Origin: Promethearchaeota archaeon
GTDB taxonomy: Archaea > Asgardarchaeota > Lokiarchaeia > Sigyniarchaeales > SOKP01
Assembly (NCBI GenBank): GCA_048938445.1
Contig: JBHLME010000038.1
Coordinates: 1-32,894 of the forward strand
DNA: 32,894 bases
Reading direction: 5' to 3'
Shown here: in pieces, positions 1-25,866 of the stretch
How the letters are laid out: each line of letters opens with the position of its first letter
Position numbering within the stretch: position 1 is the stretch's first letter
Program-made: the position numbers and the translations under genes
Notes under the pieces: model-generated
What the model saw: the letters and a program-made list of their open reading frames with translations, nothing else
Told to the model about the DNA's origin: nothing
The model's database searches: none

Positions 1-662
1 ATTTCCGTGGCATTTCCATTTGCTAATAAGTACGTGATTAGATCCTCAAAGGCCGCTTCATGAGTGCTAAAATCAGCACGAAGCGTAGTTCTTTCAGCAT
101 TTGAATCGGATCGGAGGTAATCTTGTACTATAAACACCTGTTCCATTAGTTCGGCTTTTAACATCGTGGCATTAGCTCTTGGATACATCGAATCTTGATA
201 TGTTATTAGCAACGTGATGTTTGTTTCTTGGGTTTCATGCTCATCAACGATATGATGCAATGTTTCATTTATTAAATCTAAAGTATTAAACGAACCAGTA
301 CTGTTAGTAATGGCATCATAAATTACTTCAGCATAATCTTCCATCTCAATTATCAAGGATTGTTCTTCTGGCATTAATGTAGCAACATTAGATAAATGTT
401 CATTGAATTCATTATAAGCTATATCAAACTCAGCCTCTTTCCCTTCCACTTCTCCAATTACATATTTATGATATAATAACATCATGTTTTCCATATCAGT
501 TATTGCTTCCATAGTGTTATCTGCTACAACCATCTCATGATTTGTTATATCCGTGATTGAGGAGCTTAAAGTATTAACTTGTAAGAGTCCAACTATACCT
601 ATAATTGTAGCTATGATCATAAGGAAACCGAATCCCATTGTCATTCGCCTACCTATATTCAT
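1..662 (-). CDS. Partial (runs off the left edge) membrane sensor, methyl-accepting chemotaxis protein or sensor kinase: N-terminal TM helix plus helical-bundle (4HB_MCP-like) extracellular domain
   Basis: Not in the ORF track. Manual translation from ATG at 662 gives MNIGRRMTMGFGFLMIIATIIGIVGLLQVNTLSSSITDITNHEMVVAD..., open to the window edge. It has a typical MCP TM1 start and a GGGGTG SD-like motif upstream. The signalling domain lies outside the window. Confidence 0.75.
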   Translation of the reverse strand, partial: MNIGRRMTMGFGFLMIIATIIGIVGLLQVNTLSSSITDITNHEMVVADNTMEAITDMENMMLLYHKYVIGEVEGKEAEFDIAYNEFNEHLSNVATLMPEEQSLIIEMEDYAEVIYDAITNSTGSFNTLDLINETLHHIVDEHETQETNITLLITYQDSMYPRANATMLKAELMEQVFIVQDYLRSDSNAERTTLRADFSTHEAAFEDLITYLLANGNATE

Positions 663-1780: not shown

Positions 1781-2626
1781 GTGAAAAAAGTCGTGGATCC
1801 TGAAAAAACAAAAGAAATGAAACGATACGAAGAAATTACGGGTAAGTTTGCAATTTGGCGTGGTTTAGTGACAGAGGGATTTAAAAAATGGCAAAAAGGA
1901 GAAAAAATATATGAACAAGATAAAGAAAGAATTACGATTCTAGTTCCAGATGAAAAAAAAAATAAATGGAATGATTTTGCTGAAAAAAACGACTATACAT
2001 CAATTTCTAAAATGATACGAGAAGCTGTTGATACTTTTATCGATTCAAGATTAAAACATAAATCAATGAAGGGAGTATTAGAAATAACCCATGGATTAAA
2101 AGAACCCTTAACTTTAATTAAAGGTTTCTCACAAATAATTCTTGAAAACTATAAAGATGATTTAAAATGGGATGTATTAACCAAAATTAATGATATTTTT
2201 GATCAAAGCTTAATTCTTGAAAGTAGAATTAAAGAAATATCAGAACAAGTACAAGATGATGAAGTTCAATATGATGTACTAATCATTGAAGATGATACAT
2301 CAACAATTAAAGTATTAGCTAATTTTTTTGAAATTAAAGGACATACTTATAAGATCTTAATGAATGGTGCTGATGCTATAAATGAGATTATAAGGTCCAA
2401 TCCTAAAATCATATTATTAGACATTCTTTTACCTGATATTGATGGATTTGAAATTTGTAAACAAATAAAATCCATTGAGACTCTTAAAAATAATAAAGTT
2501 TTTTATATTACAGCAATACCTGGAGATGAAGTAGAAGCTAGAATGATTGAAACAAAAGCAGACGGCTATTTTTTAAAACCATTTGATTTTGGCCAATTCA
2601 ATAAATTATTACAATTTTTGAAATAA
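1781..2626 (+). CDS. N-terminal extension + RHH + HisKA/DHp-like (His intact) + receiver domain protein, paralog of the upstream gene
   Basis: RITILVPDEKKNKWNDFAEKNDYTSISKMIREAV (RHH); EITH104GLKEPLTLIKGFSQII; REC LIIEDD, ILLD214ILLPDIDG, YITA, FLKPF; GTG start. Confidence 0.8.
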   Translation: MKKVVDPEKTKEMKRYEEITGKFAIWRGLVTEGFKKWQKGEKIYEQDKERITILVPDEKKNKWNDFAEKNDYTSISKMIREAVDTFIDSRLKHKSMKGVLEITHGLKEPLTLIKGFSQIILENYKDDLKWDVLTKINDIFDQSLILESRIKEISEQVQDDEVQYDVLIIEDDTSTIKVLANFFEIKGHTYKILMNGADAINEIIRSNPKIILLDILLPDIDGFEICKQIKSIETLKNNKVFYITAIPGDEVEARMIETKADGYFLKPFDFGQFNKLLQFLK

Positions 2627-4189: not shown

Positions 4190-5353
4190 TTAAAAAGGAA
4201 AATTATATTTATTTAATCCAAGTTCTTGTTGCATGATTTTTATATCCTGTTGTATGCTTTTATTAATCGGAATCCCATTTTGTCTCCTTTCTAATTCTTT
4301 ATAGTATTCTTTTTCCCCTGCTGTATAAATTTTATTTTTTCCTGGAGCTTTTTTTGAGGAGCGAAGCGCTCTCATTATATTTCCAGTAATTCTTTTAAAA
4401 ATTTTCAGAGGTATGAAATTATCTATGTTAATTGCGAGAAAGAAGTGCCCTACTTTCAGCCTTTTTTGGCCATTCTCATATATTCCCATAGTATCTTTAA
4501 GATAAACGCCATCTTGTAAAGCAGAGGATAAGATCTCGACAAGGGTAGCATATCCATAACCTTTATATCCAGACATTCCCTCGCCCTTGCCTCCCAATGG
4601 TAATAATGCTGCTGAATCATCCAATAAATCATGTAATACATCATCAGGATTTGTTTTAGTATTTCCATCTTTAGTTATCACGACTCCCTTGGGTAATGGT
4701 TTATTTGAACGTTGATATACCTCTACTTTACCTCTTTGAACTATAGAAGTTGCACAATCAATTAGAAAAGGAAATTCCTCATCTGTAGGCACACCAGATG
4801 TTAAGGGATTAGTCCCTAACATTGGCTCGACACCAAATGTAGGAGGCACGGCAGGTCGAGCATTAGTCGTTGTGATCCCAATCATTCCTTCCTTGATAGC
4901 CATTAATGAGTAATAACCCGCAATCCCGAAATGAGTAGAATTTCTAACAGCTACAGCTCCAAGCCCGTACTTTTTTGCTTTTTTGATTGCCAAACTCATT
5001 GCTTCATGAGCAATAACAGGTCCCATACCACAGCCTCCATCAATAACAGCAGTTGTAGGTCCCTCCTTTACTATGTTTATTTCAGTTTTTATATTATAAA
5101 TCCCAGCTTTAATCCGGTCGTAATACATCTTGCAACGTTGAATTCCATGAGAATCAATACCCCTTAGATCGGATGTAATTAAAACGTCAGCAATAATTCT
5201 AGTATCTTTTTTAGGAACGCCTAGACAAATAAATACATCTCTCATAAAATTCATTAGAGTTTTAGCGTCAATTTTAACTATTTCCGATGATTCAGATAAT
5301 ACTTGATTTTGAATTGTCATTATTAACTCATTATTATCCTGTGATATACACAA
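4190..5353 (-). CDS. Ldh_2 family NAD(P)-dependent dehydrogenase (malate/L-sulfolactate/ureidoglycolate type), copy A; start may be ATG at 5320
   Basis: DLRGIDSHG, RNSTHFG, GTNP, GYKGYG, GHFFLAI, GEKE motifs. Confidence 0.9.
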   Translation of the reverse strand: MCISQDNNELIMTIQNQVLSESSEIVKIDAKTLMNFMRDVFICLGVPKKDTRIIADVLITSDLRGIDSHGIQRCKMYYDRIKAGIYNIKTEINIVKEGPTTAVIDGGCGMGPVIAHEAMSLAIKKAKKYGLGAVAVRNSTHFGIAGYYSLMAIKEGMIGITTTNARPAVPPTFGVEPMLGTNPLTSGVPTDEEFPFLIDCATSIVQRGKVEVYQRSNKPLPKGVVITKDGNTKTNPDDVLHDLLDDSAALLPLGGKGEGMSGYKGYGYATLVEILSSALQDGVYLKDTMGIYENGQKRLKVGHFFLAINIDNFIPLKIFKRITGNIMRALRSSKKAPGKNKIYTAGEKEYYKELERRQNGIPINKSIQQDIKIMQQELGLNKYNFPF

Positions 5354-5460: not shown

Positions 5461-6573
5461 TTAAAAAGGAAAAACATACTTATCAAGACCTAATTCTTTT
5501 TGCATGGTAATAATATCATGTTGTAGGTTCTTATTTATTGGTATTCCAATTTTTTTTCTCTCATTCTCAGCAATATATTCCTTTTCACCTGCCGTGTAAA
5601 TTCTTTCTGCTCCAGGTTCTTTTTTAGCACTTCTAAGACCTCTCATTATATTTCCTGCAGTTTTTGTAAAATTTGATAATGGTAAAAAACTCTCAATATT
5701 TATAGCTAAAAAGAAGTGCCCCACTTTTAACCTCTTTTGATTTTCTTCAACAATTCCTATTGTATCTCTTAAATATATCCCATCTTGTAACGCTGCAGAT
5801 AAAATTTCAACTATCGTGGCATATCCATATCCCTTATAACCGGAGGTTTCTTCACCTCTTCCACCTAAAGGTAATAACGCTGCCCGTTTATTAGATAAGT
5901 CTTTTAGAACTTTACTGGGATCTGTTTCAGTTTTACCATCTTCAGTAATAATTGTTCCTTCAGGTAAAGGTTTATTTATCCTGTTATATAACTCAACTTT
6001 ACCTCTTTGAATGATTGACGTAGCACAATCAAGAACAAAGGGAAATTCCTCATCAGTTGGAGCCCCCATAGTTAAGGGATTAGTACCTAGCATTGGCTCT
6101 ACACCAAATGTTGGGGGTATTGATGGGCGAGCATTAGTAACTGTTATACCAATCATTCCTTCTTTTATTGCCATAAGTGAATAATATCCAGCGATACCAA
6201 AATGAGTGGAGTTTCTCACGGCAACAGCACCTAAACCAAACTTCTTCGCTTTTTCTATAGCCATACTCATTGCTTTATGAGCTATCACATGACCCATCCC
6301 ACAGCCTCCATCTATAAGTGCTGTTGTTGGCCCATCATTTATCACTTTGATTTGAGTCCTGACTTCATATATTCCTTCTTTAATTCGATCGTAATACATC
6401 TTACACCTTTGTATTCCGTGAGAATCAATTCCTCTAAGATCTGATGTTATCAACACGTCTGCAATGATTTTAGCATCATCATTAGGGACACCAAGCCCTA
6501 AAAAAACATCCCTCATAAAATTCTCGAGAATTTCAGCATCAACATACGAAACTTTATCATTCATTATAATCAA
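5461..6573 (-). CDS. Ldh_2 family dehydrogenase, copy B; start may be ATG at 6564
   Basis: Same motif set as copy A, with long stretches identical to it. Confidence 0.9.
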   Translation of the reverse strand: MIIMNDKVSYVDAEILENFMRDVFLGLGVPNDDAKIIADVLITSDLRGIDSHGIQRCKMYYDRIKEGIYEVRTQIKVINDGPTTALIDGGCGMGHVIAHKAMSMAIEKAKKFGLGAVAVRNSTHFGIAGYYSLMAIKEGMIGITVTNARPSIPPTFGVEPMLGTNPLTMGAPTDEEFPFVLDCATSIIQRGKVELYNRINKPLPEGTIITEDGKTETDPSKVLKDLSNKRAALLPLGGRGEETSGYKGYGYATIVEILSAALQDGIYLRDTIGIVEENQKRLKVGHFFLAINIESFLPLSNFTKTAGNIMRGLRSAKKEPGAERIYTAGEKEYIAENERKKIGIPINKNLQHDIITMQKELGLDKYVFPF

Positions 6574-6713
6574 TTTATTAATTTACTCTATGATATAATC
6601 TATATCATTCCATTTCATTAAATTATTACTATTTAAAGATTAATATCAATGTTCAATGTAAAGAACCTAGAAAAAAGTTTTTATTTACATTCTAATATAA
6701 TAAACATGAGACC

Positions 6714-6968
6714 ATGGAAAATAAACCACTATGTAGTACATGCAAACATAATGCGCAAATATCATTATGTGGACCTTGTATAGAACAAGGTTCTCAAATG
6801 ATTGATAAAATTGCAATTGATTTAGGTGTTGAGATTGCTAATCCTGAAGACAATATTAATAAATATAAATATTCCTGTAAGATAATCATGAATTATCCCG
6901 AGGATTTTAATGATTTAGATCCATATAATTGCAAATATTATTTGAACTCTTGTCTTGGATTTCGATAA
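6714..6968 (+). CDS. Small Cys-rich hypothetical protein
   Basis: ATG start, CSTC, CGPC plus three further Cys; occupies an otherwise empty interval. Confidence 0.6.
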   Translation: MENKPLCSTCKHNAQISLCGPCIEQGSQMIDKIAIDLGVEIANPEDNINKYKYSCKIIMNYPEDFNDLDPYNCKYYLNSCLGFR

Positions 6969-7157
6969 TACGTATTATTATTAATAACTAGTATAGTCCT
7001 TTCAAGATCTATACGTTTTCTCCTCTCATAAAAAGTCTCCTTTTATTTAAATAATTTTAATATTCTAAATGATCAGCTTTTCCTTTACTGTCGTAATTTT
7101 ACATGTAATACATACATGATATCCCCTTTTTTGAATCTTTAAGTATACATTTATTTC

Positions 7158-7331
7158 ATGCGAATCAATGATCTTGAAAAAAAAGTCAGTGGTTTGATTT
7201 TTTCAAAGGAAATGACGGTAGAAGATGATGGGGAAGGAATAACATATGTATTTCCAGATACAAAAGAATTTCTTTCCATGGCAAAGAGAAAATTTGTTAA
7301 TAGAGGATTACTATCTGAGGAACAACTATAA
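7158..7331 (+). CDS. Small hypothetical protein (57 aa) or gene remnant
   Basis: Manual translation MRINDLEKKVSGLIFSKEMTVEDDGEGITYVFPDTKEFLSMAKRKFVNRGLLSEEQL*. The purine-rich codon usage matches neighbouring genes, and it is below the ORF-track cutoff. Confidence 0.5.
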   Translation: MRINDLEKKVSGLIFSKEMTVEDDGEGITYVFPDTKEFLSMAKRKFVNRGLLSEEQL

Positions 7332-7548
7332 AATAATCTATGATAATTGTAATTTAAATTATAGGACTCCAATATAGTACATTTTCTTGTAGGTTACTCT
7401 AATACATCTAAAAATACAATAAAACAGTAAGAAAAGAAAGCAAGGAAATAATTTAATCACCAATCTTAACTCAAAATCAAAAGATCTTTTTTAATTTTAT
7501 TTTTAAGAAATCAATAGATTTTAATTTTTAAATGCACTAGTAATAATT

Positions 7549-7852
7549 GACCGTTTAGGGCACGGTTGATACTCTTTACTGAGTGGACCACAAAATGCTC
7601 TTAGTGGAAAGTGCCTAATTTAAGGTTTTCATGAGTAGTAGTATGCCATTGTTATATTCCGGCGAAGCACCGGCTACATAGGTGGGTGCTTGGGCATTAA
7701 AACTTGTAGGAGTTTTATAAGTCCATAATGTGGAACCCGCTGAGGCCCGGGAGGGAGCAGGTGTAACACGAGGCGTTCACGCTTTGCAGTGCAGGTGTGG
7801 AGGGGTATGACAGCAGGTTATACTATTAGGATTAGAATCGAGGATTAGGTTT
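7549..7852 (+). ncRNA. ffs: Archaeal signal recognition particle RNA (7S/SRP RNA); ends approximate
   Basis: GC-rich ~300 nt island. Helix 8 motif GAGG-CCC-GGGA-GGG-AGCA (7742-7759); helix 6 TAAAACTT-GTAG-GAGTTTTA with GNAR loop (7706-7709); helix 5 pairings 7682-7691/7771-7780, 7650-7660/7802-7812 and 7636-7644/7820-7828; Alu-domain closing stem GGGCAC 7558-7563/GTGCCT 7611-7616; oligo-T at the 3' end. Confidence 0.93.
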
Positions 7853-7876
7853 TTTAATATAATCTTTCAATTTAAA

Positions 7877-11762: not shown

Positions 11763-12173
11763 ATGGCTCAAGCTCAATCTAAAAAAGTATCAAATAAATG
11801 CCGGACAATCTTGATTTGCGATGATGAAAGTGATATTGTTTATCTTGCGGAAAAAATCTTAATTTGGGGAGGATATAATACAATAACCTGCAGTAACGGT
11901 AAAGAAGTATTGGAGACAATGGAAAAAATGCATAATGAGATTGATTTAATACTTCTGGATATCAGAATGCCTGTAATGAATGGTCATGAAGCATTAAAAG
12001 AACTAAAAACTATAAAAAGATTCAAAGATACTCCTGTCGTGCTATTTACCATAAATAATTATAATCAAGACGTTCAAAAAGGTCGAGAATTAGGAGCAGA
12101 TGCATTCTTACCTAAACCATTTTCGGCAAGAGGATTATTAAAATTCATACAAGAAATGTTAGAAATCCCTTGA
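11763..12173 (+). CDS. Stand-alone receiver domain (CheY-like) response regulator
   Basis: LICDDE, ILLDIRMPVMNG, LFT, FLPKPF. Confidence 0.92.
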   Translation: MAQAQSKKVSNKCRTILICDDESDIVYLAEKILIWGGYNTITCSNGKEVLETMEKMHNEIDLILLDIRMPVMNGHEALKELKTIKRFKDTPVVLFTINNYNQDVQKGRELGADAFLPKPFSARGLLKFIQEMLEIP

Positions 12174-15801: not shown

Positions 15802-16161
15802 ATGTCAGTTAAATGTGATTTCTGTGGGGGAGTTACTGATAGGTTTCATACAAAATTGATTAAAACCTTAAAATCTTCTAATTTAATTTCAGAGAAATAT
15901 CCAAATTTATGTGCAGATTGTTTTAAGACGTATTCTAGCGTGAAAAAACTTGAAAGATTTCTTGATGAGAATAATTTGACATGTAACGAATGTGGAAACA
16001 AGTTTACTCATTATGAAATTTTATTCGATGGAAACGGCAATACTGCTTATTGTGAATGCAAAAAATGTAATAAAACCTTTAAAGTAGAAATTTCTTCAGA
16101 TTTCTGTGCAAAGATTAACGAATGTCCTGCAGTTGAGCTAACAACAAGCATTTCTCAGTAA
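15802..16161 (+). CDS. Hypothetical protein with two zinc-finger/ribbon units
   Basis: CDFC..CADC and CNEC..CKKC pairs, plus extra Cys. Confidence 0.7.
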   Translation: MSVKCDFCGGVTDRFHTKLIKTLKSSNLISEKYPNLCADCFKTYSSVKKLERFLDENNLTCNECGNKFTHYEILFDGNGNTAYCECKKCNKTFKVEISSDFCAKINECPAVELTTSISQ

Positions 16162-16187
16162 ATCGATTTTAATCGATTTTAATTGAT
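16161..16187. repeat. Short tandem repeat (AATCGATTTT)x2 + AATTGAT
   Basis: Read directly; each unit contains the palindrome AATCGATT. Confidence 0.6.
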
Positions 16188-16313
16188 AGTAATGTAAAAA
16201 TAGTAACAAGTTTATATTTTACAATAAAAAAATTACTCTTTTAATGAATAATTGATTTCTAATTATCAATTAACTGTCTATAAAATTCAAGAATATTTTT
16301 TTCTTTAAAAAAA

Positions 16314-16646
16314 ATGTCAGGTCTCAAAGATTTAAAAAATGGAATATCTGAAGTAAATTCAGAGATAAAAGCTCTCAATTCTCAAATCAAGGAATTATCA
16401 AACATAGTAGTTGAAATGACGAACAAGATTTCTGAAAGTTTAAACGATTCTACAAAAGAAATCAACAATACAAACAACACTATAAGAGAGTCATTAGATA
16501 AAGCTACCGAAGCCTTAAAGGATATGACAAACGTCGTTGGTAAAGTGGTAGGAATATTAACGCTAGGTGGTGAAGCTAGAACCTCTCTTATAAAGAGTCT
16601 CGGGATCGATAATTTAATTCCTGATTTTTTTAAAAAAAAAGAATAA
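16314..16646 (+). CDS. Hypothetical coiled-coil/amphipathic helical protein
   Basis: Heptad pattern LKDLKNGISEVNSEIKALNSQIKELSNIV...; ATG start. Confidence 0.7.
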   Translation: MSGLKDLKNGISEVNSEIKALNSQIKELSNIVVEMTNKISESLNDSTKEINNTNNTIRESLDKATEALKDMTNVVGKVVGILTLGGEARTSLIKSLGIDNLIPDFFKKKE

Positions 16647-16667
16647 ATCCCACTAGAGCCTTTTACT

Positions 16668-16850
16668 TTACTCTTGATATTTTTTATTTAAAAAATAAAA
16701 AATTGTTATACTTACAACATATACAAGAGTAAAAATTCCCCAAAATAATGTCATTAATGCATCATTTTCAAGGATTCCGCGAATAAAAAACCAAACAAAT
16801 AAAATCGTTAATAAAAATAATAATCGAATTCTATTAGACCACTTGTCCAT
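16668..16850 (-). CDS. Small two-TM membrane protein
   Basis: Two hydrophobic segments separated by ENDA, with basic flanks. Confidence 0.55.
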   Translation of the reverse strand: MDKWSNRIRLLFLLTILFVWFFIRGILENDALMTLFWGIFTLVYVVSITIFYFLNKKYQE

Positions 16851-16998
16851 TTTAACAATATCTCAAGAGTTTTAATTAATAATTATTAAAATCTTTGATT
16901 AAATTAAAACACTAAGGTAAAAAAAAAATTATATAGAAAGAATAGAAATAAATTGAATAAAGTGTTAACTATTAATTATTACATCAATCAAAAAGGAT

Positions 16999-17214
16999 TT
17001 GAATAAGAAGATGCCAGATAAATCAAGACCTCCTTCATGTTTTTTATGTTCTAAGAATTATGAAGAAACATTAAACATGCTACATTATTGTATCTGTGAT
17101 ATAGGAATTTGCGATAATTGCATAAATTCCGTGAAGAATAGTGATACTACGTGGATATGTCCAAATTGTAAAGCCGAAAATTCAATTGAAGAAACTAAAC
17201 TGATACGATCTTAA
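16999..17214 (+). CDS. Small C4C4-type RING finger protein (start may be ATG 17011)
   Basis: C-x2-C-x13-C-x-C-x4-C-x2-C-x12-C-x2-C: CFLC..CIC..CDNC..WICPNCK. Confidence 0.75.
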   Translation: MNKKMPDKSRPPSCFLCSKNYEETLNMLHYCICDIGICDNCINSVKNSDTTWICPNCKAENSIEETKLIRS

Positions 17215-17269
17215 TTTTTATATATTCATGAATTCTTTTTATTTTCAAAAAAATATTATTATCATATTA

Positions 17270-17342
17270 AAGCCGATGATGATATATAAAAAGATGATTT
17301 AAAATTATTAAAAAGGATAAAATCAGAGGAAGGCTGAGGCTT
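17270..17342 (+). ncRNA. Candidate box C/D guide sRNA
   Basis: Terminal stem AAGCC (17270-74)/GGCTT (17338-42), box C ATGATGA (17276-82), box D CTGA (17334-37), putative D' ATGA (17294-97) and degenerate C' AGGATAA (17314-20); intergenic. Confidence 0.7.
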
Positions 17343-17630
17343 AAAAAGACAATATTTAATGATTATAGCGTAATTGAATCCCAAATTCGTAGAAATCAAT
17401 TATATCCTTTCACTTTAATTCTCAAAGGTTCATTCATAACGTTAATAATTACATTACTCTTAACTATAACAATTTGTTTTTTAAACTTCTTACTTACGAG
17501 TTTTTACTTTTCAAATACAATATTTTTATTAAAATATTGTCTTGGATTAATTTTTTGGGTTTGTATAAGTTCAATACCCTTTATAGGAATCTATTTTATT
17601 ATCAAGATTCCGATAATATCGTTTCAAATT

Positions 17631-17894
17631 ATGGATTTATTGCATATACCTTTCGAAATAAATATTATAATCTCATTATTTTCTTTTTTCACGATTGCAA
17701 TCATCGGATTCATATGTAACACCTATATTTTAATCATGTTGATAAAAAATTATTATCTTATTTCAAATGTTAAAGATAAAAATAGAAAAAAGACACAAAT
17801 TACCTTTTTAATTTCATTAGCATTAGGGGTTATTTTGATTTTCACTTCAGATTTTATATTCTTCCCAATTTATCAAGTATTAATCACTTTATAA
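17631..17894 (+). CDS. Small two-TM membrane protein
   Basis: Two long hydrophobic stretches with a basic loop KDKNRKK; ATG start. Confidence 0.5.
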   Translation: MDLLHIPFEINIIISLFSFFTIAIIGFICNTYILIMLIKNYYLISNVKDKNRKKTQITFLISLALGVILIFTSDFIFFPIYQVLITL

Positions 17895-17951
17895 AAAAAT
17901 ATATACGTTCCATTTTTAAATAAATTAAATACACATAATTGAAGAAATATC

Positions 17952-18449
17952 ATGTCAAAAGCGAATATTATTTCAAAAGTCATGGAAATTGAAAATTGTA
18001 ATAAAGATGTATTTCTAAAAGCACTTTATAAACCGGGTATTTGGGAGAAATGTTCACCTGTTAAAAAAATAGAAGTAGAATTTATAGCACCTAATGTATT
18101 TAAGAGTGATATTGTTGATGAAGTGAACGTGGTTAAGGTTCCTATTGAATTGAAGGGTGAGTTAGTAATGGATGATAGAGGAGAAGTCCCAAACAAGGGA
18201 AGATTGATTGAGGTAAATGTGAGAAACAACAAGGATGTTAAAGATTTAGAAGGTCGTGTAAGAATTAAGGAATTAACACCAAATAAGACGAAGATTGGCA
18301 TTTTTATAGATAAATTTACCTTGAGTAGTGATTTCATGAACTTGATAGGAAAAAATGCCGCAGAATTAATCCTAAGAACAAAAATTACAGGATTGCTAAA
18401 TAATCTGGAGAAATATTGTAAAAATAATGATTTAAAGAATCTATTGTAA
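17952..18449 (+). CDS. Hypothetical protein, START/SRPBCC (CoxG-like) fold suspected
   Basis: Size and pattern: N-terminal strand, 'VFLKALYKPGIWEKCSPVKKIEV', alternating beta strands, long C-terminal helix ending LNNLEKYC. Confidence 0.6.
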   Translation: MSKANIISKVMEIENCNKDVFLKALYKPGIWEKCSPVKKIEVEFIAPNVFKSDIVDEVNVVKVPIELKGELVMDDRGEVPNKGRLIEVNVRNNKDVKDLEGRVRIKELTPNKTKIGIFIDKFTLSSDFMNLIGKNAAELILRTKITGLLNNLEKYCKNNDLKNLL

Positions 18450-20952: not shown

Positions 20953-22143
20953 TTACTGATAACTAATCCATTTTTCCTCTAAATTTGAATCGTTAAGTAC
21001 TTCAATGAGGTAGTTTGTGAAATCTTCTCCTGTAGAACCATCAGGTCTCCCTGTAATTTTGATTCTTTTTTCAAAAATAGCACAAATATCAAGTGCTTTA
21101 TCTAACTTTTGTGATAGATTAATAAAACCAATGTGGTTTAGCAATAATGCTGCTGCTTTAATCATACTTGAAGGATCTGCATATTTCACTCTTCCTTCTT
21201 CAACCATACGAGGTGCAGAACCATGAATGGCCTCAAACATTGCATATCTCTTTCCTATATTAGCACTACCTGCAGTTCCAACTCCACCTTGTATCTGAGC
21301 AGCCTCATCAGTAATGATATCACCATAAAGGTTAGGAGCTACTAATACTCTAAATTGATTCTGACGAGCAGGATCAATCAATTTAGCAGTAATGATATCA
21401 ATGTACCAGTCATCCCATTCAACTTCTGGATATTCTTCAGCAATTTTCTCTGCTATTGCGAGAAATTTACCATCGGTGGTCTTTATCACATTAGCTTTTG
21501 TAACAACGGTTACTTTATTGATATGATTATTTTTAGCATAATCAAAAGCTAAGCGAATAATACGTTCCGCACCTTGAGTCGTGATCACCTTGAAATCCAC
21601 TGAAAGCTCATCCGTAACATTCAAACCTTTAGAGCCTAAAACATAAGAACCCTCAGTATTTTCACGAAAGAACATCCAATCAATTTTTTTATCGGGAACT
21701 TTAACTGGGCGAACATTTGCAAATAGATCTAATTCCCGACGCATTGAAACATTAGCACTTTCAATGTTAGGCCATTTATCCCCTTTTCTGGGAGTAGTGG
21801 TGGGGCCTTTTAATAAAACATGACATTGTTTAATTTCTTCAAGAACATCATCGGGTAAGGCTTTCATTACTTTTGCCCTATTCTCAATAGTCAAGCCTTC
21901 AACTATTTTAAATTGAACTTTACCATTTTTTAAATGATCTTCTAGGAGAAATTCTAGTATTTTTTTTGCATGTTTGGATATTTCTGGACCTATTCCATCA
22001 CCATATATTATTCCAATTATAATAGGATTAAGTTTTGAGTAGTCAATCCAATCCTCTCCTTTAGAAAGTCTATCAACTCGTTCTAATTGTTCAATTAAAA
22101 TTTCTTCAAAATGTTTCTTTGCGATTTCTATTTCTTTTTTCAT
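20953..22143 (-). CDS. Isocitrate/isopropylmalate dehydrogenase family protein
   Basis: GDGIGPEI, LKGPTTTP, RRELDLFANVRP, RENTEG, KANV, NLYGDIITD, FEAIHGSAP; exact substrate not assignable. Confidence 0.92.
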   Translation of the reverse strand: MKKEIEIAKKHFEEILIEQLERVDRLSKGEDWIDYSKLNPIIIGIIYGDGIGPEISKHAKKILEFLLEDHLKNGKVQFKIVEGLTIENRAKVMKALPDDVLEEIKQCHVLLKGPTTTPRKGDKWPNIESANVSMRRELDLFANVRPVKVPDKKIDWMFFRENTEGSYVLGSKGLNVTDELSVDFKVITTQGAERIIRLAFDYAKNNHINKVTVVTKANVIKTTDGKFLAIAEKIAEEYPEVEWDDWYIDIITAKLIDPARQNQFRVLVAPNLYGDIITDEAAQIQGGVGTAGSANIGKRYAMFEAIHGSAPRMVEEGRVKYADPSSMIKAAALLLNHIGFINLSQKLDKALDICAIFEKRIKITGRPDGSTGEDFTNYLIEVLNDSNLEEKWISYQ

Positions 22144-22274: not shown

Positions 22275-24989
22275 TTAGACATTTTGAAGGTACTCATCTA
22301 TGGCTTCAGCAGCTCTTTTTCCAGCACCCATCGCGGATATAACAGTTGCGCTTCCCGTTACTATATCTCCACCAGCAAAAATATCATCAATATTGGTTTG
22401 ACCCTTTTCATTAGTTTCAATGTATCTCCATTTATTAAGTTTTAATTCTGGAATAGATTTTGTCAAAATAGGATTTGCATTTGCTCCTATAGCTAAAATA
22501 ACCGTATCTGTCTCAATAATATGTTCTGAATTTTCAATTGGAATGGGCCGTCTCCTGCCTGAAGCATCTGGTTCTCCAAGTTTCATCGAGACAACCTCCA
22601 TTTCTTTAACATTATCATTTTCATCACCAATTAATCTTACAGGATTTGTTAAAAAACGGAAATCAATACCTTCTTCTTTTCCATGATGATATTCTTCGAT
22701 TCTTGCAGGCATTTCTGCTTCTGATCTCCTGTATACTAGGATAACTTTTTCGGCACCTAATCTTAGAGCCGTTCTAGCAGAGTCCATTGCAACATTACCA
22801 CCTCCGACTACAGTAACAATTTTTCCAACGTTTATTGGTGTATCATATTCAGGAAATCTATATGCTTTCATTAAATTTGACCTCGTGAGGAATTCATTAG
22901 CAGTTAAGACCCCGTTTAAATTAAGTCCTGGAATTTTAAGAAACATAGGAAGTCCGGCACCAACACCAACAAAAAATGCTTTAAACCCCATCTCTCTCAA
23001 ATCTTCTATAGTTAAGGTTTTACCAATAATCGAGTTATAATGTATTTTCACGTCTATCAATTTCAGAGTTTCAATTTCAGCTTTTACAATTTCTTTTGGT
23101 AACCTAAATTCAGGAATACCATAAACTAGTACACCTCCTCCCGCATGAAAAGCTTCAAAGATAGTAACATCATATCCTCTCATGGCAAGTTCTCCAGCAC
23201 ATGTTAATCCCGCAGGACCGGAACCAATAATCGCAACTTTTTTACTGTTTGGAGGTCTACAATCAGGGCATTCTTTAAGTTGATTTTCTCGTTCCCAATC
23301 AGCAATATATCTTTCTAAATATCCAATGGAAATGGGTTCTCCGAGATTGTTTAGCAAGCAAGTTTTTTCACATTGAATCTCTTGAGGGCATACCCTTCCA
23401 CATATAGCGGGCAACAAGTTATAATTTTTGACAATATGAATCGCATCAATATTTTTTTTTAACTTTATTTGTCTGATGAATCCTGGTATGTCTATATTTA
23501 CAGGACAACCAGTTACACATAGAGGTCTTCCACACTGTAAGCATCGCTGGCTTTCTTTAAGTGCCATTTCTGCAGTTAATCCATAAGGAACCTCATTAAA
23601 ATTATGAATACGCTCGTTGGGATCTTGTTCGATCATTTTAGGTCGTCGAGACTCTTTATAAGTTTTTTGTTTCGATTTAGAAATCTTAGAAAGTGAAATG
23701 AAGCTTTTATGATCTTCTTTTATTTCTTTCTTTTCAATTAAATCAAGGTCCAAAGCCTTTTTAAAGAGTTCAGCACCTTTTTCGGTTCTTATTATTACAG
23801 TTGACCACCCTGATTCTGAACCAATAGACCCTACTGAAATGTCTGCTTGTTCTGCTGTTAAATCATCACAGAAGAAGCATCCCAACCTGCCGTATTTTTT
23901 AATTTTTTTGAGAGGGATATCAATTGAAGAACCATCCTTATTATAGAGATAAAATCGCCCTTTATCTATATCCATTTTCTTTATATCAGTAGGTGGTGTT
24001 TGAAATTCGTTTTCTAAAAGTTCAAGAATATCTTTATAATTAAAAGATTCCATGCAAAATAATCCGATTTTAAATGAAATATTCTCATAAAATGGTTTAT
24101 TCAATGGATAAAAGGATATTTTTTTAATTGCTTCCATCATGCAAGGTGTTCCAACCACTGCAATATTATTAAATTCTTTTGAACGATTTAAAATCTTCAA
24201 TGAAGGTGAATTACTATATTTAGTTCCGGAAGTTTTCAATAAATCAACTTCATTACTTATGAAAACAGGTAAGGGATCATGTGGATTGCTAGATTCACTT
24301 ACTGCTAGTGCACCATCTATTAATCCCTCCCGAAAAGCTGTTTTAAGAAGTGTGGTAACAATACCTCCATCCTGAGCTACCCTTTGTATTTGAGAATCTT
24401 GAGTTTGAGCTGAATAAACCTCCAAATAGTGATTTAATGAATAAGAGATTTTTGTAGAAATATTTTCAGTTCCATTAGAATTTTTTAATGAATGTGGGAA
24501 AAAAGATCGTGGACAACACGCAAAACATGTTCCGCAACTTATACATTTATCTTCATTAATTTCAAAAGTTCCTTCTAAATAATTAATGGCATTAACAGGG
24601 CAAATTGATACACATAATCCACAGCCACAACACAAATTTTTATCCCTGATTATTGAAACATTAGGAAATACTCCTTCAATTTTATTTTCACTGATTATTT
24701 TCTGGAAAAATCGTGAATTTTCCCCAATAAACTCTAATAATCCTAATTCTTTTAAATATTCAATATTATATTCTATGTCTTTTTCTGAAATACCCGTTTC
24801 TGCCTTTAATTTATTAATATCTATTGAATTTAACTGCTTAATTTTGTTTAAAAGGTTTAATCTAGCATTTTCTGCACGGGTTAATGATTGAATATAGTCA
24901 TTTAATTCAGATTCAGTATATTTTCCAGCTCTTATAATTTTCTCCTTATTATATTCTAATATTTTTAATAATGTTGATCCTTGTTCCAT
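22275..24989 (-). CDS. Fusion: wHTH-like + 2x[4Fe-4S] ferredoxin + FrhB (F420-binding beta subunit family) + NfnB/SudA/GltD-like flavoprotein (start placed at ATG 24989; track uses 25019)
   Basis: CCGCGLCVSICP and CISCGTCFACCP; FrhB motifs QDGGIVT, GTKY, VGTPC, IGLFCMESF, GCFFCDD..ADISVG, GWSTVIIRT; NfnB motifs RCLQC..CVTGCP, GRVCPQEIQCE, GSGPAG, GGGNVAMD, YRRS, GDIVTGSATVISAM. GAGGT SD precedes ATG 24989. Confidence 0.9.
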   Translation of the reverse strand: MEQGSTLLKILEYNKEKIIRAGKYTESELNDYIQSLTRAENARLNLLNKIKQLNSIDINKLKAETGISEKDIEYNIEYLKELGLLEFIGENSRFFQKIISENKIEGVFPNVSIIRDKNLCCGCGLCVSICPVNAINYLEGTFEINEDKCISCGTCFACCPRSFFPHSLKNSNGTENISTKISYSLNHYLEVYSAQTQDSQIQRVAQDGGIVTTLLKTAFREGLIDGALAVSESSNPHDPLPVFISNEVDLLKTSGTKYSNSPSLKILNRSKEFNNIAVVGTPCMMEAIKKISFYPLNKPFYENISFKIGLFCMESFNYKDILELLENEFQTPPTDIKKMDIDKGRFYLYNKDGSSIDIPLKKIKKYGRLGCFFCDDLTAEQADISVGSIGSESGWSTVIIRTEKGAELFKKALDLDLIEKKEIKEDHKSFISLSKISKSKQKTYKESRRPKMIEQDPNERIHNFNEVPYGLTAEMALKESQRCLQCGRPLCVTGCPVNIDIPGFIRQIKLKKNIDAIHIVKNYNLLPAICGRVCPQEIQCEKTCLLNNLGEPISIGYLERYIADWERENQLKECPDCRPPNSKKVAIIGSGPAGLTCAGELAMRGYDVTIFEAFHAGGGVLVYGIPEFRLPKEIVKAEIETLKLIDVKIHYNSIIGKTLTIEDLREMGFKAFFVGVGAGLPMFLKIPGLNLNGVLTANEFLTRSNLMKAYRFPEYDTPINVGKIVTVVGGGNVAMDSARTALRLGAEKVILVYRRSEAEMPARIEEYHHGKEEGIDFRFLTNPVRLIGDENDNVKEMEVVSMKLGEPDASGRRRPIPIENSEHIIETDTVILAIGANANPILTKSIPELKLNKWRYIETNEKGQTNIDDIFAGGDIVTGSATVISAMGAGKRAAEAIDEYLQNV

Positions 24990-24993
24990 TTTA

Positions 24994-25866
24994 CTAAACC
25001 TCGTTTTTTGATTCTTCATATTCCTTACAATAACAATCCATGCATTCTTCTTCCTGTTCTTTGAATCTATTTGCTCGTTTTAGGAGATTATCAAAATCAA
25101 CAATATGGCCATCTACATCAGGTCCATCGACACAAGCAAAGAAAACTTCCCCGTCCATTGTCGAAAATCGACAACCCCCACACATTCCAGTTCCATCTAT
25201 CATTATTGTATTTAACGAAACATAAGTTTTTACTTTAGGTAAATCCCCCAAACCATTAGTTGTAAGGGTAACAAACTTCATCATTATCAAAGGTCCTATG
25301 GCTATGACGAACTCAATCTTTTCTTTTTGGATAATTTCTTTTAAAGGTTCTGTCACCACACCCTTTCTTCCTTCAGTTCCATCATCAGTACATATTATGA
25401 GTTCATCACTCACGGCCGCCATTTTTTCTCTCCAGAACAATAAATCAGTATTTCTTGCACCTATAATCGTTATTATCTTATTCCCTGCTTCTTTTAATTC
25501 CTTTGCTTGAGGATAACATGGAGCAATCCCAACTCCCCCTCCAATTATAACAATTGGATTTTGGAATTTATCAACATGTATTGCATTTCCTAAGGGACCG
25601 ACAACATCCAAAAGCTCATCTCCTTCATTTTGATGAGACAATAATTTAGTGCTTTTTCCTACTATTTGAAAAACAATTGTTATTGTACCCTTAGTTCGAT
25701 CATAATCCGCAACAGTTAGTGGAAATCGTTCTCCTGTTTCATTAATTCGTATTAGTATGAAATTTCCAGCGTGAGCTTTTTTTGCTATCAAAGCAGCTTC
25801 TATATCCATTTCCATTAGCGTTCCGCTATTTCCCAGTTCTTTTTTTTTAACAATCTTGTATGGCAT
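24994..25866 (-). CDS. nfnA: NfnA/SudB small subunit of NADH-dependent reduced ferredoxin:NADP+ oxidoreductase (FNR-type FAD/NAD + [2Fe-2S])
   Basis: GERFPLT, VGPLG, GGGVG, CTDDG, AIGP, MIDGTGMCGGC..CVDGP (Asp/3Cys [2Fe-2S] motif); directly upstream of the NfnB-like gene. Confidence 0.9.
   Translation of the reverse strand: MPYKIVKKKELGNSGTLMEMDIEAALIAKKAHAGNFILIRINETGERFPLTVADYDRTKGTITIVFQIVGKSTKLLSHQNEGDELLDVVGPLGNAIHVDKFQNPIVIIGGGVGIAPCYPQAKELKEAGNKIITIIGARNTDLLFWREKMAAVSDELIICTDDGTEGRKGVVTEPLKEIIQKEKIEFVIAIGPLIMMKFVTLTTNGLGDLPKVKTYVSLNTIMIDGTGMCGGCRFSTMDGEVFFACVDGPDVDGHIVDFDNLLKRANRFKEQEEECMDCYCKEYEESKNEV

Follow-up and report, generated by a model that had tools for sequence, protein, structure and literature searches.

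Gene organisation of the locus

This study deals with a two-gene locus on the minus strand of a 32,894-nucleotide (nt) contig (JBHLME010000038.1, assembly GCA_048938445.1) from an uncultured Loki-type Asgard archaeon, whose genome is labelled G000 below; the whole stretch is referred to as the window. The locus is predicted to encode both subunits of an Nfn-type transhydrogenase, the larger of which is continuous with a ferredoxin domain and a domain of the FrhB family, a type of oxidoreductase domain associated with coenzyme F420. The first gene, nfnA (24994..25866; 290 amino acids (aa) plus stop), specifies the small, PyrK-like Nfn subunit with flavin adenine dinucleotide (FAD), an NAD(H) site and a [2Fe-2S] cluster, as recognised by matches to PRK06222, 5jca_S and 4ylf_A. 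The second gene (22275..24989; 904 aa plus stop, a single open frame) specifies the fused large subunit, which consists of an N-terminal domain, the ferredoxin domain, the FrhB domain and NfnB.

The nfnA stop codon (TAG, 24996-24994) is followed by TAAA and then by the ATG of the fused gene at 24989, which leaves a 4-nt gap. The longest uninterrupted open reading frame (ORF) of the fused gene runs over 22275-25019 on the minus strand, and starting at the upstream ATG (25019) would yield a 914-aa protein whose gene overlaps nfnA. The 904-aa form was preferred because its M1 is nearly invariant in 90 aligned homologues. Residue numbers given here are those of the 904-aa protein; Pfam was run on the 914-aa form, and subtracting 10 converts the positions. 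An nfnA-like gene, a 4-nt gap and one unbroken ORF had been reported in an initial annotation made from the DNA alone, and all of these are present. Full-length homologues of the fused subunit share 59-79% identity with it, and its homology matches, with E-values of 1e-20 to 1e-171, are far beyond chance.

The protein collection holds the product of this gene as P0037, a protein of 627 aa (69% of the ORF) that starts at a methionine inside the FrhB domain. The shorter form is a later start picked by the gene caller and not a break in the frame, and gene callers can therefore hide the fusion. Since the public label of the protein is 'NADPH-dependent glutamate synthase', automated reconstructions overlook the fused enzyme.

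Domain composition of the fused subunit

Conservation was assessed in an alignment (A1) of the window's protein with 89 full-length clusters defined at 90% identity (855-935 aa, 59-79% identity), 90 sequences in all. The N-terminal domain (aa 1-112; 24654..24989, minus strand as for all parts of the gene) is winged-helix-like; it has no Pfam match over cut-off and resembles winged-helix families below threshold. It is followed by a ferredoxin domain for two [4Fe-4S] clusters (aa 113-162; 24504..24653) with two CxxCxxCxxxCP motifs, matched by Pfam Fer4_10, Fer4_9 and Fer4_7, and by the FrhB-type F420-oxidoreductase domain (aa 191-425; 23715..24419), predicted to carry FAD and one [4Fe-4S] cluster, in which FrhB_FdhB_N (191-267) scores 72 bits and FrhB_FdhB_C (274-425) 153.5 bits. 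The NfnB part comprises a Fer4_20 domain with two [4Fe-4S] clusters (aa 460-570; 23280..23612; 135.5 bits), which forms the ferredoxin-facing branch in canonical Nfn, and the FAD and NADPH Rossmann domains (aa 583-890; 22320..23243; Pyr_redox_2, 131 bits), which hold the bifurcating-FAD site in canonical Nfn. The Pfam scan proposed in the initial annotation thus returned the Fer4 dicluster, FrhB_FdhB_N/C, Fer4_20 and Pyr_redox_2, all in that order.

The eight cysteines of the ferredoxin domain (C120/123/126/130 and C149/152/155/159) and the four cluster cysteines of the FrhB domain (C283 in GTPC, C312 in LFC and C371/C374 in CFFC) are invariant in the alignment. The same applies in the NfnB part to C483/C486 (RCLQC), C491/C495 (CVTGCP), C534-P-Q-E537-x-Q-C540, C544 and Y753-R-R (90/90), with C530 kept in 89 of the 90. 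The two CxxCxxCxxxCP motifs, the four FrhB cluster cysteines and the complete NfnB motif set that had been read from the DNA are in this way borne out as invariant or nearly so.

At the junction (aa 426-459; 23613..23714), which was delimited by the ends of homology and is crossed by other contigs, the C-terminal helix of FrhB passes straight into the N-terminus of NfnB. Homology to FrhB extends to about aa 441-443 and homology to NfnB begins at aa 448, so that about four residues lie outside both, and the junction is gap-free in the 90 homologues. A short linker had been claimed here; the stretch in question, SKSKQKTYKESRRPK, is present at nt ~23637-23681, but it is not a free spacer, since the homology blocks nearly abut. 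A free flexible linker between FrhB and NfnB was rejected on the same ground.

Mean identity to the window's protein over the 90 sequences is 47% for the N-terminal domain, 70% for the ferredoxin domain, 65% for the FrhB region, 69% for the NfnB cluster domain and 79% for the NfnB flavin domains. The ferredoxin and FrhB domains, which together are called the module below, contain no gaps across the alignment, and with 70% and 65% mean identity the module is therefore under purifying selection.

Occurrence of the fusion

Three contigs from other samples span the junction region (nt ~23640-23680) without a difference, which supplies the independent coverage that the initial annotation had seen as a check. 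Record 3 of X2 (23503-25513) comes from a different sample of the same study as the probable source, and record 20 of X4 (23518-24389) and record 11 of X3 (23553-23712) come from a second study; each crosses the junction with 0 differences.

A word-index search of the protein collection found about 100 clusters at 90% identity that share the FrhB and NfnB domains, and the named sources of these are Lokiarchaeota or Promethearchaeota bins. The phylum was screened with a 301-aa junction-spanning query in 400 species genomes (E <= 1e-100). Of the 135 genomes in the GTDB family to which the window belongs, a count that includes G000, 58 carry the fusion, and five genomes in the screen have two copies; in G212 the fused gene is cut by a contig end, which brings the total to at least 59 of the 135. 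A junction unique to this contig, which had been raised as a possibility, is excluded by these numbers. No junction-spanning match was found in the 265 phylum genomes outside the family, where the best match covers the NfnB part alone.

Amongst the matches listed from 1.84 billion representative proteins (50% identity), the architecture is shared by one full-length protein (P0066) and two fragments from the N-terminus, and the remaining top matches listed cover the NfnB part only. Pfam was run on 24 of the 150 listed representatives, picked for their length or for several matched stretches, and none of these 24 represents a second family with the same build. Other chimeras were present amongst the 24, namely the FrhB/GltD-like proteins P0193 and P0228, and an N-terminal polyferredoxin without FrhB is attached to NfnB in P0171, P0234, P0140 and P0136. 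The conserved order with nfnA that was expected across genomes is kept, nfnA lying directly upstream of the fused gene in 20 of 20 other loci.

The Nfn half

The product of nfnA scores 367 bits against NCBIfam PRK06222 (cut-off 220), 275 bits against the small subunit of Pyrococcus furiosus NfnI (5jca_S) and 251 bits against that of Thermotoga maritima (4ylf_A). Its [2Fe-2S] motif, DGTGMCGGCR...FACVDGP, aligns to the solved small subunits.

The NfnB part (aa 448-902) scores 574 bits against T. maritima NfnB (4ylf_B) and 526 bits against P. furiosus NfnI (5jca_L), and it exceeds the cut-off of TIGR01316 (584 bits, cut-off 472). The motifs RCLQC...CVTGCP and CGRVCPQExQCExxC match T. maritima NfnB residue for residue, and in the Rossmann region VYRRSEAEMPAR aligns against IVYRRTEREMPAR of the T. 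maritima protein. The glutamate of the CPQE...C motif is reportedly a cluster ligand according to the T. maritima Nfn structure paper. By these motifs the NfnB half is of the true Nfn type, with every canonical cofactor motif present. A grouping of the large subunit with GltD had been named as an observation that would speak against the original reading; the scores (574 bits against 267 for the glutamate synthase GltD, 6s6s_G) and the TIGR01316 match favour a bifurcating NfnB. G000 contains no other NfnB over cut-off.

The FrhB half

For the FrhB part, the 12 best relatives with solved structures are all named as F420-dependent: four FrhB, ACDS-zeta, FwdI, three F420-dependent sulfite reductases (Fsr) and three FdhB (76-199 bits). 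The scores fall within 163-199 bits for methanogen FrhB, including 199 bits to Methanosarcina barkeri FrhB (6qgr_B) and 178 bits to Methanothermobacter marburgensis FrhB (3zfs_C), within 139-147 bits for Fsr and within 76-99 bits for FdhB. The ferredoxin and FrhB domains align jointly to ACDS-zeta (8riu_B; 180 bits, query 18-333 of a 361-aa piece) and FwdI (8rja_E; 177 bits, 13-341), and also to Fsr (7np8). The FAD loops described for M. marburgensis FrhB are 24QDGG, G73-T77 and I132-F138 with Cys134 (PMC3930138). The AQDGG, GTKY and GLFCME stretches of the fused protein align to these loops and are kept in 79-90 of the 90 homologues.

Origin and apparent loss of the module

The closest paralogues of the module in G000 are two free-standing proteins, on C4 (502 aa, 43% identity over the module) and C204 (498 aa, 42%), both composed of an N-terminal extension followed by the ferredoxin and FrhB domains. 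A Gtr1/RagA-type small GTPase, a eukaryote-like signature protein, is encoded on C204 just downstream of an FrhB paralogue of 488 aa (L004:48-953, minus strand). Pfam gives only sub-threshold matches for the N-terminal domain of the fused protein (HVO_A0114 at E 0.001, RPA_C and CggR_N). A hidden Markov model (HMM) built from the 90 homologues of this domain matches the C4 paralogue (E 3e-10; BLAST E 6e-5) and a double winged-helix protein on C187 (E 1e-6). The domain is called winged-helix-like from these resemblances and is a possible docking piece; the C4 paralogue that also carries it sits in a cluster of heterodisulfide reductase (Hdr) genes.

A tree of 215 NfnB cores, cut by a core HMM with rows of fewer than 400 matched positions dropped, was computed with FastTree. 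Of 91 rows classed as fused, 89 group together in a 96-row clade (support 99), within which the unfused nfnB genes of G255 (L046:4142-5602) and G244 (L047:2693-4150) nest with support 100. Both of these genes start immediately after nfnA with a stretch of about 30 residues homologous to aa 417-447, the tail of FrhB, and their NfnB is otherwise 74-75% identical. Given this remnant and the nesting within the fused clade, both genes are read as secondary deletions of the module. Matches to the junction query in G243, G247, G199 and G200 begin at the same point as the remnant.

Coenzyme F420 in the host genome

The initial annotation had suggested a search for F420 biosynthesis genes, and cofG (362 bits, cut-off 213), cofH (463/374), cofD (320/257) and cofE (260/181) are present in G000. 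The genome also encodes the F420-dependent methylene-tetrahydromethanopterin (H4MPT) dehydrogenase Mtd (353 bits), a family found amongst the control genomes only in two methanogens. Over their cut-offs, G000 contains no FrhA (best 149 against 392.5 bits), no Mer (TIGR03555; best 72 against 349) and no Fno (best npdG 92 against 150). An Fno-like gene of 216 aa is present on C47 (L040:1450-2097, minus strand; Pfam F420_oxidored, 76 bits), about 7 kb from cofG-cofH and adjoining a gene for a pterin-binding / DUF4346 protein.

Nine FrhB-family matches were found in G000, and the other FrhB paralogues lie in HdrA, HdrBC-like and MvhD clusters. Given the cof genes, Mtd and the FrhB paralogues in the Hdr clusters, F420 seems to serve this archaeon as a functioning carrier. 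It appears that F420 must be linked to the other pools through enzymes with an FrhB module, amongst which the fused Nfn would be the one facing NAD(P)H.

On C137 of G000, an 817-aa protein (L044:5947-8397, plus strand) represents a second FrhB/GltD chimera of this genome, different from the fused Nfn subunit. A GltD/NfnB-like module made up of Fer4_20 and Pyr_redox_2 (aa ~204-600) lies in it as an insertion, with FrhB_FdhB_N (75-146) before it and the end of FrhB_FdhB_C (662-732) after it; its gene directly follows those for HdrB, HdrA, MvhD and a 419-aa ORF, and P0193 (821 aa) has the same build. C218 (L043:878-15585, plus strand) encodes, in order, HdrA (1013 aa), MvhD, a 347-aa ORF, a HydB/AsrA-like and a HydG/AsrB (PyrK)-like protein, a ferredoxin-FrhB protein (374 aa), an HdrC/B-like protein, HdrA, MvhD and another HdrA (1016 aa), so that F420-type and NAD(P)H-type modules are embedded amongst heterodisulfide-reductase-like genes. 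On C68 (L019:514-3228, minus strand) a 905-aa fusion joins a ferredoxin dicluster, a GltD-like flavoprotein part with 44.6% identity to the NfnB core of the window, and a pair of CCG domains of the HdrB type.

Comparison with known systems

The locus resembles canonical NfnAB (T. maritima 4ylf, P. furiosus NfnI 5jca) in its nfnA-nfnB operon and in the aligned cluster, FAD and NADPH motifs, and differs from it by about 446 extra N-terminal residues on NfnB, which supply three additional clusters together with a third flavin and a third hydride site. Four Nfn architectures are described in a 2019 review, none of them with FrhB, and the word F420 occurs 0 times in it (PMC6405883). The Imachi preprint names NfnAB amongst Asgard enzymes without comment, as a plain ferredoxin enzyme.

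A close functional parallel is offered by the carbon monoxide dehydrogenase (CODH) and formylmethanofuran dehydrogenase (Fwd) of Candidatus Ethanoperedens thermophilum, in which an attached F420-reductase subunit makes the enzymes reduce F420, with ferredoxin rates eightfold lower (PMC11493965). These subunits, ACDS-zeta and FwdI, have an N-terminal ferredoxin domain with two [4Fe-4S] clusters, which docks onto its partner's distal cluster, followed by the F420-reductase domain (PMC11493965). The window's module has the same two-domain build as ACDS-zeta and FwdI (PDB 8RIU, 8RJA), where an enzyme held to depend on ferredoxin is re-aimed at F420. Unlike these, which are separate subunits on CODH or formylmethanofuran dehydrogenase, it is fused to a bifurcating transhydrogenase and carries the additional winged-helix-like N-terminal domain. 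Activity was measured for the Ethanoperedens enzymes, whereas F420 use is predicted here.

Group I Fsr (PDB 7NP8, 7NPA; 145-147 bits to the module) likewise has a ferredoxin domain, an FrhB-type domain and a C-terminal enzyme in one chain. In the relay described for it, electrons pass from the FAD of the F420H2 oxidase to its own cluster, then to two N-terminal ferredoxin clusters and on to the catalytic domain (PMC10229431). The C-terminal enzyme of Fsr is, however, a siroheme sulfite reductase, and Fsr has neither a second subunit nor a bifurcating flavin. With FrhB itself (PDB 6QGR, 4OMF/3ZFS, 9R51; 163-199 bits) the module shares the four conserved cysteines and the FAD loops; unlike FrhB, it lacks a FrhA/FrhG partner, and its ferredoxin domain, a part that FrhG provides in the hydrogenase, is fused ahead of it.

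Natural fusions of bifurcating enzymes with an NfnB-like NAD(P)H flavoprotein are also represented by HdrA9-11 of ANME-1 archaea, or 'type III HdrA', in which an NfnB/GltD domain is inserted at the ferredoxin site and a change of electron carrier is argued for by the authors (PMC9012536, PMC12054007). The host protein there is HdrA, with the NfnB-like part as the insert, no FrhB in the chain and no NfnA partner. The FrhB/GltD-like chimeras contain the same Pfam families as the window's protein in a different order (FrhB_N-GltD-FrhB_C in C137 and P0193, a GltD-like part and then FrhB in P0228). Their GltD-like part shares only 36-38% identity with the NfnB core of the window, its Fer4_20 domain is partial, and the C137 gene lies beside HdrB-HdrA-MvhD and not beside nfnA.

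No description of an FrhB-NfnB fusion was found in the full-text literature, a search that left most subscription journals and supplements outside, so that an earlier mention is possible. This is consistent with the earlier remark that no characterised enzyme has this architecture. Both the component parts and the plug-in principle have been described before; their combination with a bifurcating transhydrogenase is not known from the literature searched.

Proposed function and alternative explanations

The fused heterodimer contains the complete Nfn motifs and, in addition, sites for three more [4Fe-4S] clusters and for a third FAD. By analogy with the F420-reductase subunits of the Ethanoperedens CODH and Fwd, F420 may be wired into the low-potential, ferredoxin-facing branch of Nfn, a proposal to which we give about an even chance. 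NADPH would exchange electrons with the bifurcating FAD in NfnB, from which one electron would pass to the [2Fe-2S] cluster and FAD of NfnA and on to NAD+. The other would run through the two [4Fe-4S] clusters of NfnB, the two fused ferredoxin clusters and the [4Fe-4S] cluster of FrhB to the FAD of FrhB, which would gather two electrons and hand a hydride to F420. The fused ferredoxin domain would sit, by the same analogy, on the distal [4Fe-4S] cluster of NfnB, the place where free ferredoxin binds in canonical Nfn. The net reaction would be 2 NADPH + NAD+ + F420 + H+ <-> 2 NADP+ + NADH + F420H2, in which F420 would substitute for free ferredoxin or add to it. Such an enzyme could bring reducing power from the NAD(P)H of neighbouring catabolic dehydrogenases (of the isocitrate dehydrogenase family here, of the glutamate dehydrogenase type elsewhere) into the F420 pool.

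The potential of NAD(P) is -320 mV and that of F420 about -340 to -350 mV. As these values are close, the net reaction is expected to be nearly isoenergetic, with its direction set by the pool ratios; a reduced NADPH pool together with an oxidised NAD pool would drive it toward F420H2 and NADH.

A number of points weigh against F420 as the partner. Calculated from standard potentials, a low-potential branch ending on F420 forfeits the energy ordinarily conserved in ferredoxin by bifurcation, and confurcation toward NADPH from NADH and F420H2 would probably be less favourable than with ferredoxin. The module lies below the cut-off of the NCBIfam frhB equivalog TIGR03289 (228 against 331.5 bits) and just under that of the subfamily PRK09325 (265.6 against 269); with these scores, and with no FrhA over cut-off in G000, it is an FrhB-family domain and not a subunit of an F420-reducing hydrogenase. 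Pfam FrhB_FdhB_C also matches control genomes, e.g., Bacteroides thetaiotaomicron and Synechococcus elongatus, and membership of the family alone is therefore no proof of F420 use. Although cofH was found in 115 of the 135 family genomes, it was undetected in seven of the 59 with the fusion: G167 (99% complete), G258 (95%), G145 (94%), G146 (90%), G229 (88%), G242 (71%) and G148 (69%). These seven weigh against a strict dependence on F420, although the bins are incomplete, and no association between fusion and cofH is seen in the family (52/59 with the fusion, 63/76 without it). The losses in G255 and G244 mark the module as a dispensable add-on that the NfnB core can lose, and the Fno-like gene, if active, would already couple F420 and NADPH.

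Two other functional explanations, each rather improbable in our view, have to be set against the wiring of F420 into Nfn. Ferredoxin may have stayed the main partner, with the module acting as a tethered ferredoxin:F420 oxidoreductase or as a side outlet, in which case four carriers and not three would be linked. Activity as a soluble ferredoxin:F420 oxidoreductase in Methanosarcina is reported for FpoF, a protein that likewise combines a ferredoxin part with FrhB. Since the fused gene is the sole NfnB over cut-off in G000, any ferredoxin-linked Nfn activity would have to come from it, and the polyferredoxins on other NfnB proteins (P0171, P0234, P0140, P0136) occur without FrhB. The Ethanoperedens enzymes with an F420-reductase subunit also keep their use of ferredoxin, at the eightfold lower rates (PMC11493965); by that same analogy, the attached module may be expected to hinder the access of ferredoxin. 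The other explanation, to which we assign a similarly low probability, is that the FrhB-like domain does not use F420 and serves another partner (Fo, another flavin or a small molecule) or a mere electron-transfer or structural role. It would suit the sub-cut-off NCBIfam scores, the Pfam matches in control genomes not known for F420-dependent metabolism, and the fusion bins without cofH, four of which are 90-99% complete. In the available text of the FrhB and Fsr papers cited, moreover, no F420-bound FrhB structure defines the specificity residues (PMC3930138, PMC10229431). On the other side stand the 12 of 12 best solved relatives named as F420-dependent, the FAD loops conserved under selection, and the F420 biosynthesis genes and F420-dependent Mtd of G000; the closest free-standing paralogues do pass the FrhB subfamily cut-off (274.6 and 274 against 269 bits), and the absent cofH calls come from metagenome bins and may be assembly gaps.

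The remaining explanations concern the fusion itself. That the two halves work independently, the fusion securing only co-expression or stoichiometry without an internal electron wire, is very unlikely: free-standing module proteins of about 500 aa do exist (C4, C204) and NfnB persists where the module has been deleted (G255, G244), but the module alone has no second substrate site, and its clusters supply a partner enzyme in all of the solved relatives. The joint is also tight, with its roughly four residues between blocks and no gap in 90 sequences, and in every case the module is joined to the N-terminal end of NfnB, immediately before the cluster domain. Less credible still, to the point of being nearly discounted, is a non-bifurcating GltD-type subunit of glutamate synthase or a similar enzyme. 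The source labels do say glutamate synthase, a historical name that TIGR01316 carries as well; the idea was rejected on the scores (574 bits to NfnB against 267 to GltD), on the NfnA/PyrK-type partner in 20 of 20 loci and on the lack of a GltB-like gene in the window. An assembly chimera or frameshift artefact joining two genes has a negligible probability and was likewise rejected, given three contigs from other samples with 0 differences and a continuous frame shared by at least 59 genomes and 89 other clusters.

With a probability somewhat short of even, it could be F420 and not ferredoxin that is the third substrate of bifurcating Nfn in this Lokiarchaeial family. NADPH, NADH and F420H2 would then be equilibrated by a single enzyme, and together with the FrhB modules in the Hdr clusters of G000 this would make F420 the hub of electron flow in the cytoplasm of Asgard archaea without an F420-reducing hydrogenase. 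G000 has F420 genes and Mtd and neither an Frh hydrogenase nor a clear Fno over cut-off. The fused Nfn would explain how these archaea charge or discharge F420 for the H4MPT pathway. Should the Fno-like gene be active, it would form with an F420-coupled Nfn a ferredoxin-free NADPH-to-NAD+ transhydrogenase.

As a model of flavin-based electron bifurcation no system is simpler than Nfn, which, to our knowledge, has so far always been tied to ferredoxin. The enzyme proposed here would be the first of the Nfn class with a two-electron carrier on its low-potential branch, and would raise the question of what is gained from bifurcation when both acceptors lie near -320 to -350 mV. It would extend the 'plug-in F420 reductase' strategy, which was demonstrated only in 2024 with the CODH and Fwd of an ethane-oxidising archaeon, to bifurcating transhydrogenases in a different archaeal phylum. 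It would also bear on the metabolic models of Lokiarchaeia used in eukaryogenesis scenarios, which list NfnAB as a plain ferredoxin enzyme.

Neighbouring genes and the remainder of the window

A co-oriented gene of the isocitrate/isopropylmalate dehydrogenase family (20953..22143, minus strand; Pfam Iso_dh, 231 bits) lies 131 nt downstream of the fused gene and is possibly on the same transcript. Neighbours at the 20 other loci were surveyed by running Pfam on 31 of 101 flanking ORFs. Downstream of the fusion, glutamate/leucine/phenylalanine/valine (ELFV) dehydrogenase genes were found at nine loci, with up to three in a row, and Iso_dh at one (G154, L050); the remaining downstream genes encode AAA ATPases (five) and sulfotransferases (two) or are opposite-strand ORFs without a match (three). 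Upstream, both ORFs of the Mpt_N (MtdA) type that were scanned gave a Mpt_N match, and CCG-domain proteins are encoded ahead of nfnA at three loci (L065, L067, L068). The recurrence of NAD(P)-linked catabolic dehydrogenases as neighbours fits an enzyme that would redistribute their NAD(P)H.

Scans of the whole window for tRNA genes and Rfam families gave 0 matches. Two intervals of about 1.3 kb each (6574-7876 and 16647-17951) are devoid of ORFs of at least 100 aa, the second being very poor in G+C (0.235-0.25 in 1-kb bins over 16001-18000). Elsewhere in the window, tandem paralogues of the Ldh_2 family (malate/L-lactate dehydrogenase type 2) are encoded on the minus strand at 4190-5353 and 5461-6573, each with 404 bits. 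A truncated 4HB_MCP-like sensor gene lies at the start of the window (3-662, minus strand), and three response-regulator receiver proteins are encoded at 944-1663, 1781-2626 (plus strand) and 11763-12173 (plus strand), the first two of which have N-terminal regions of 120-165 aa that match no Pfam family.

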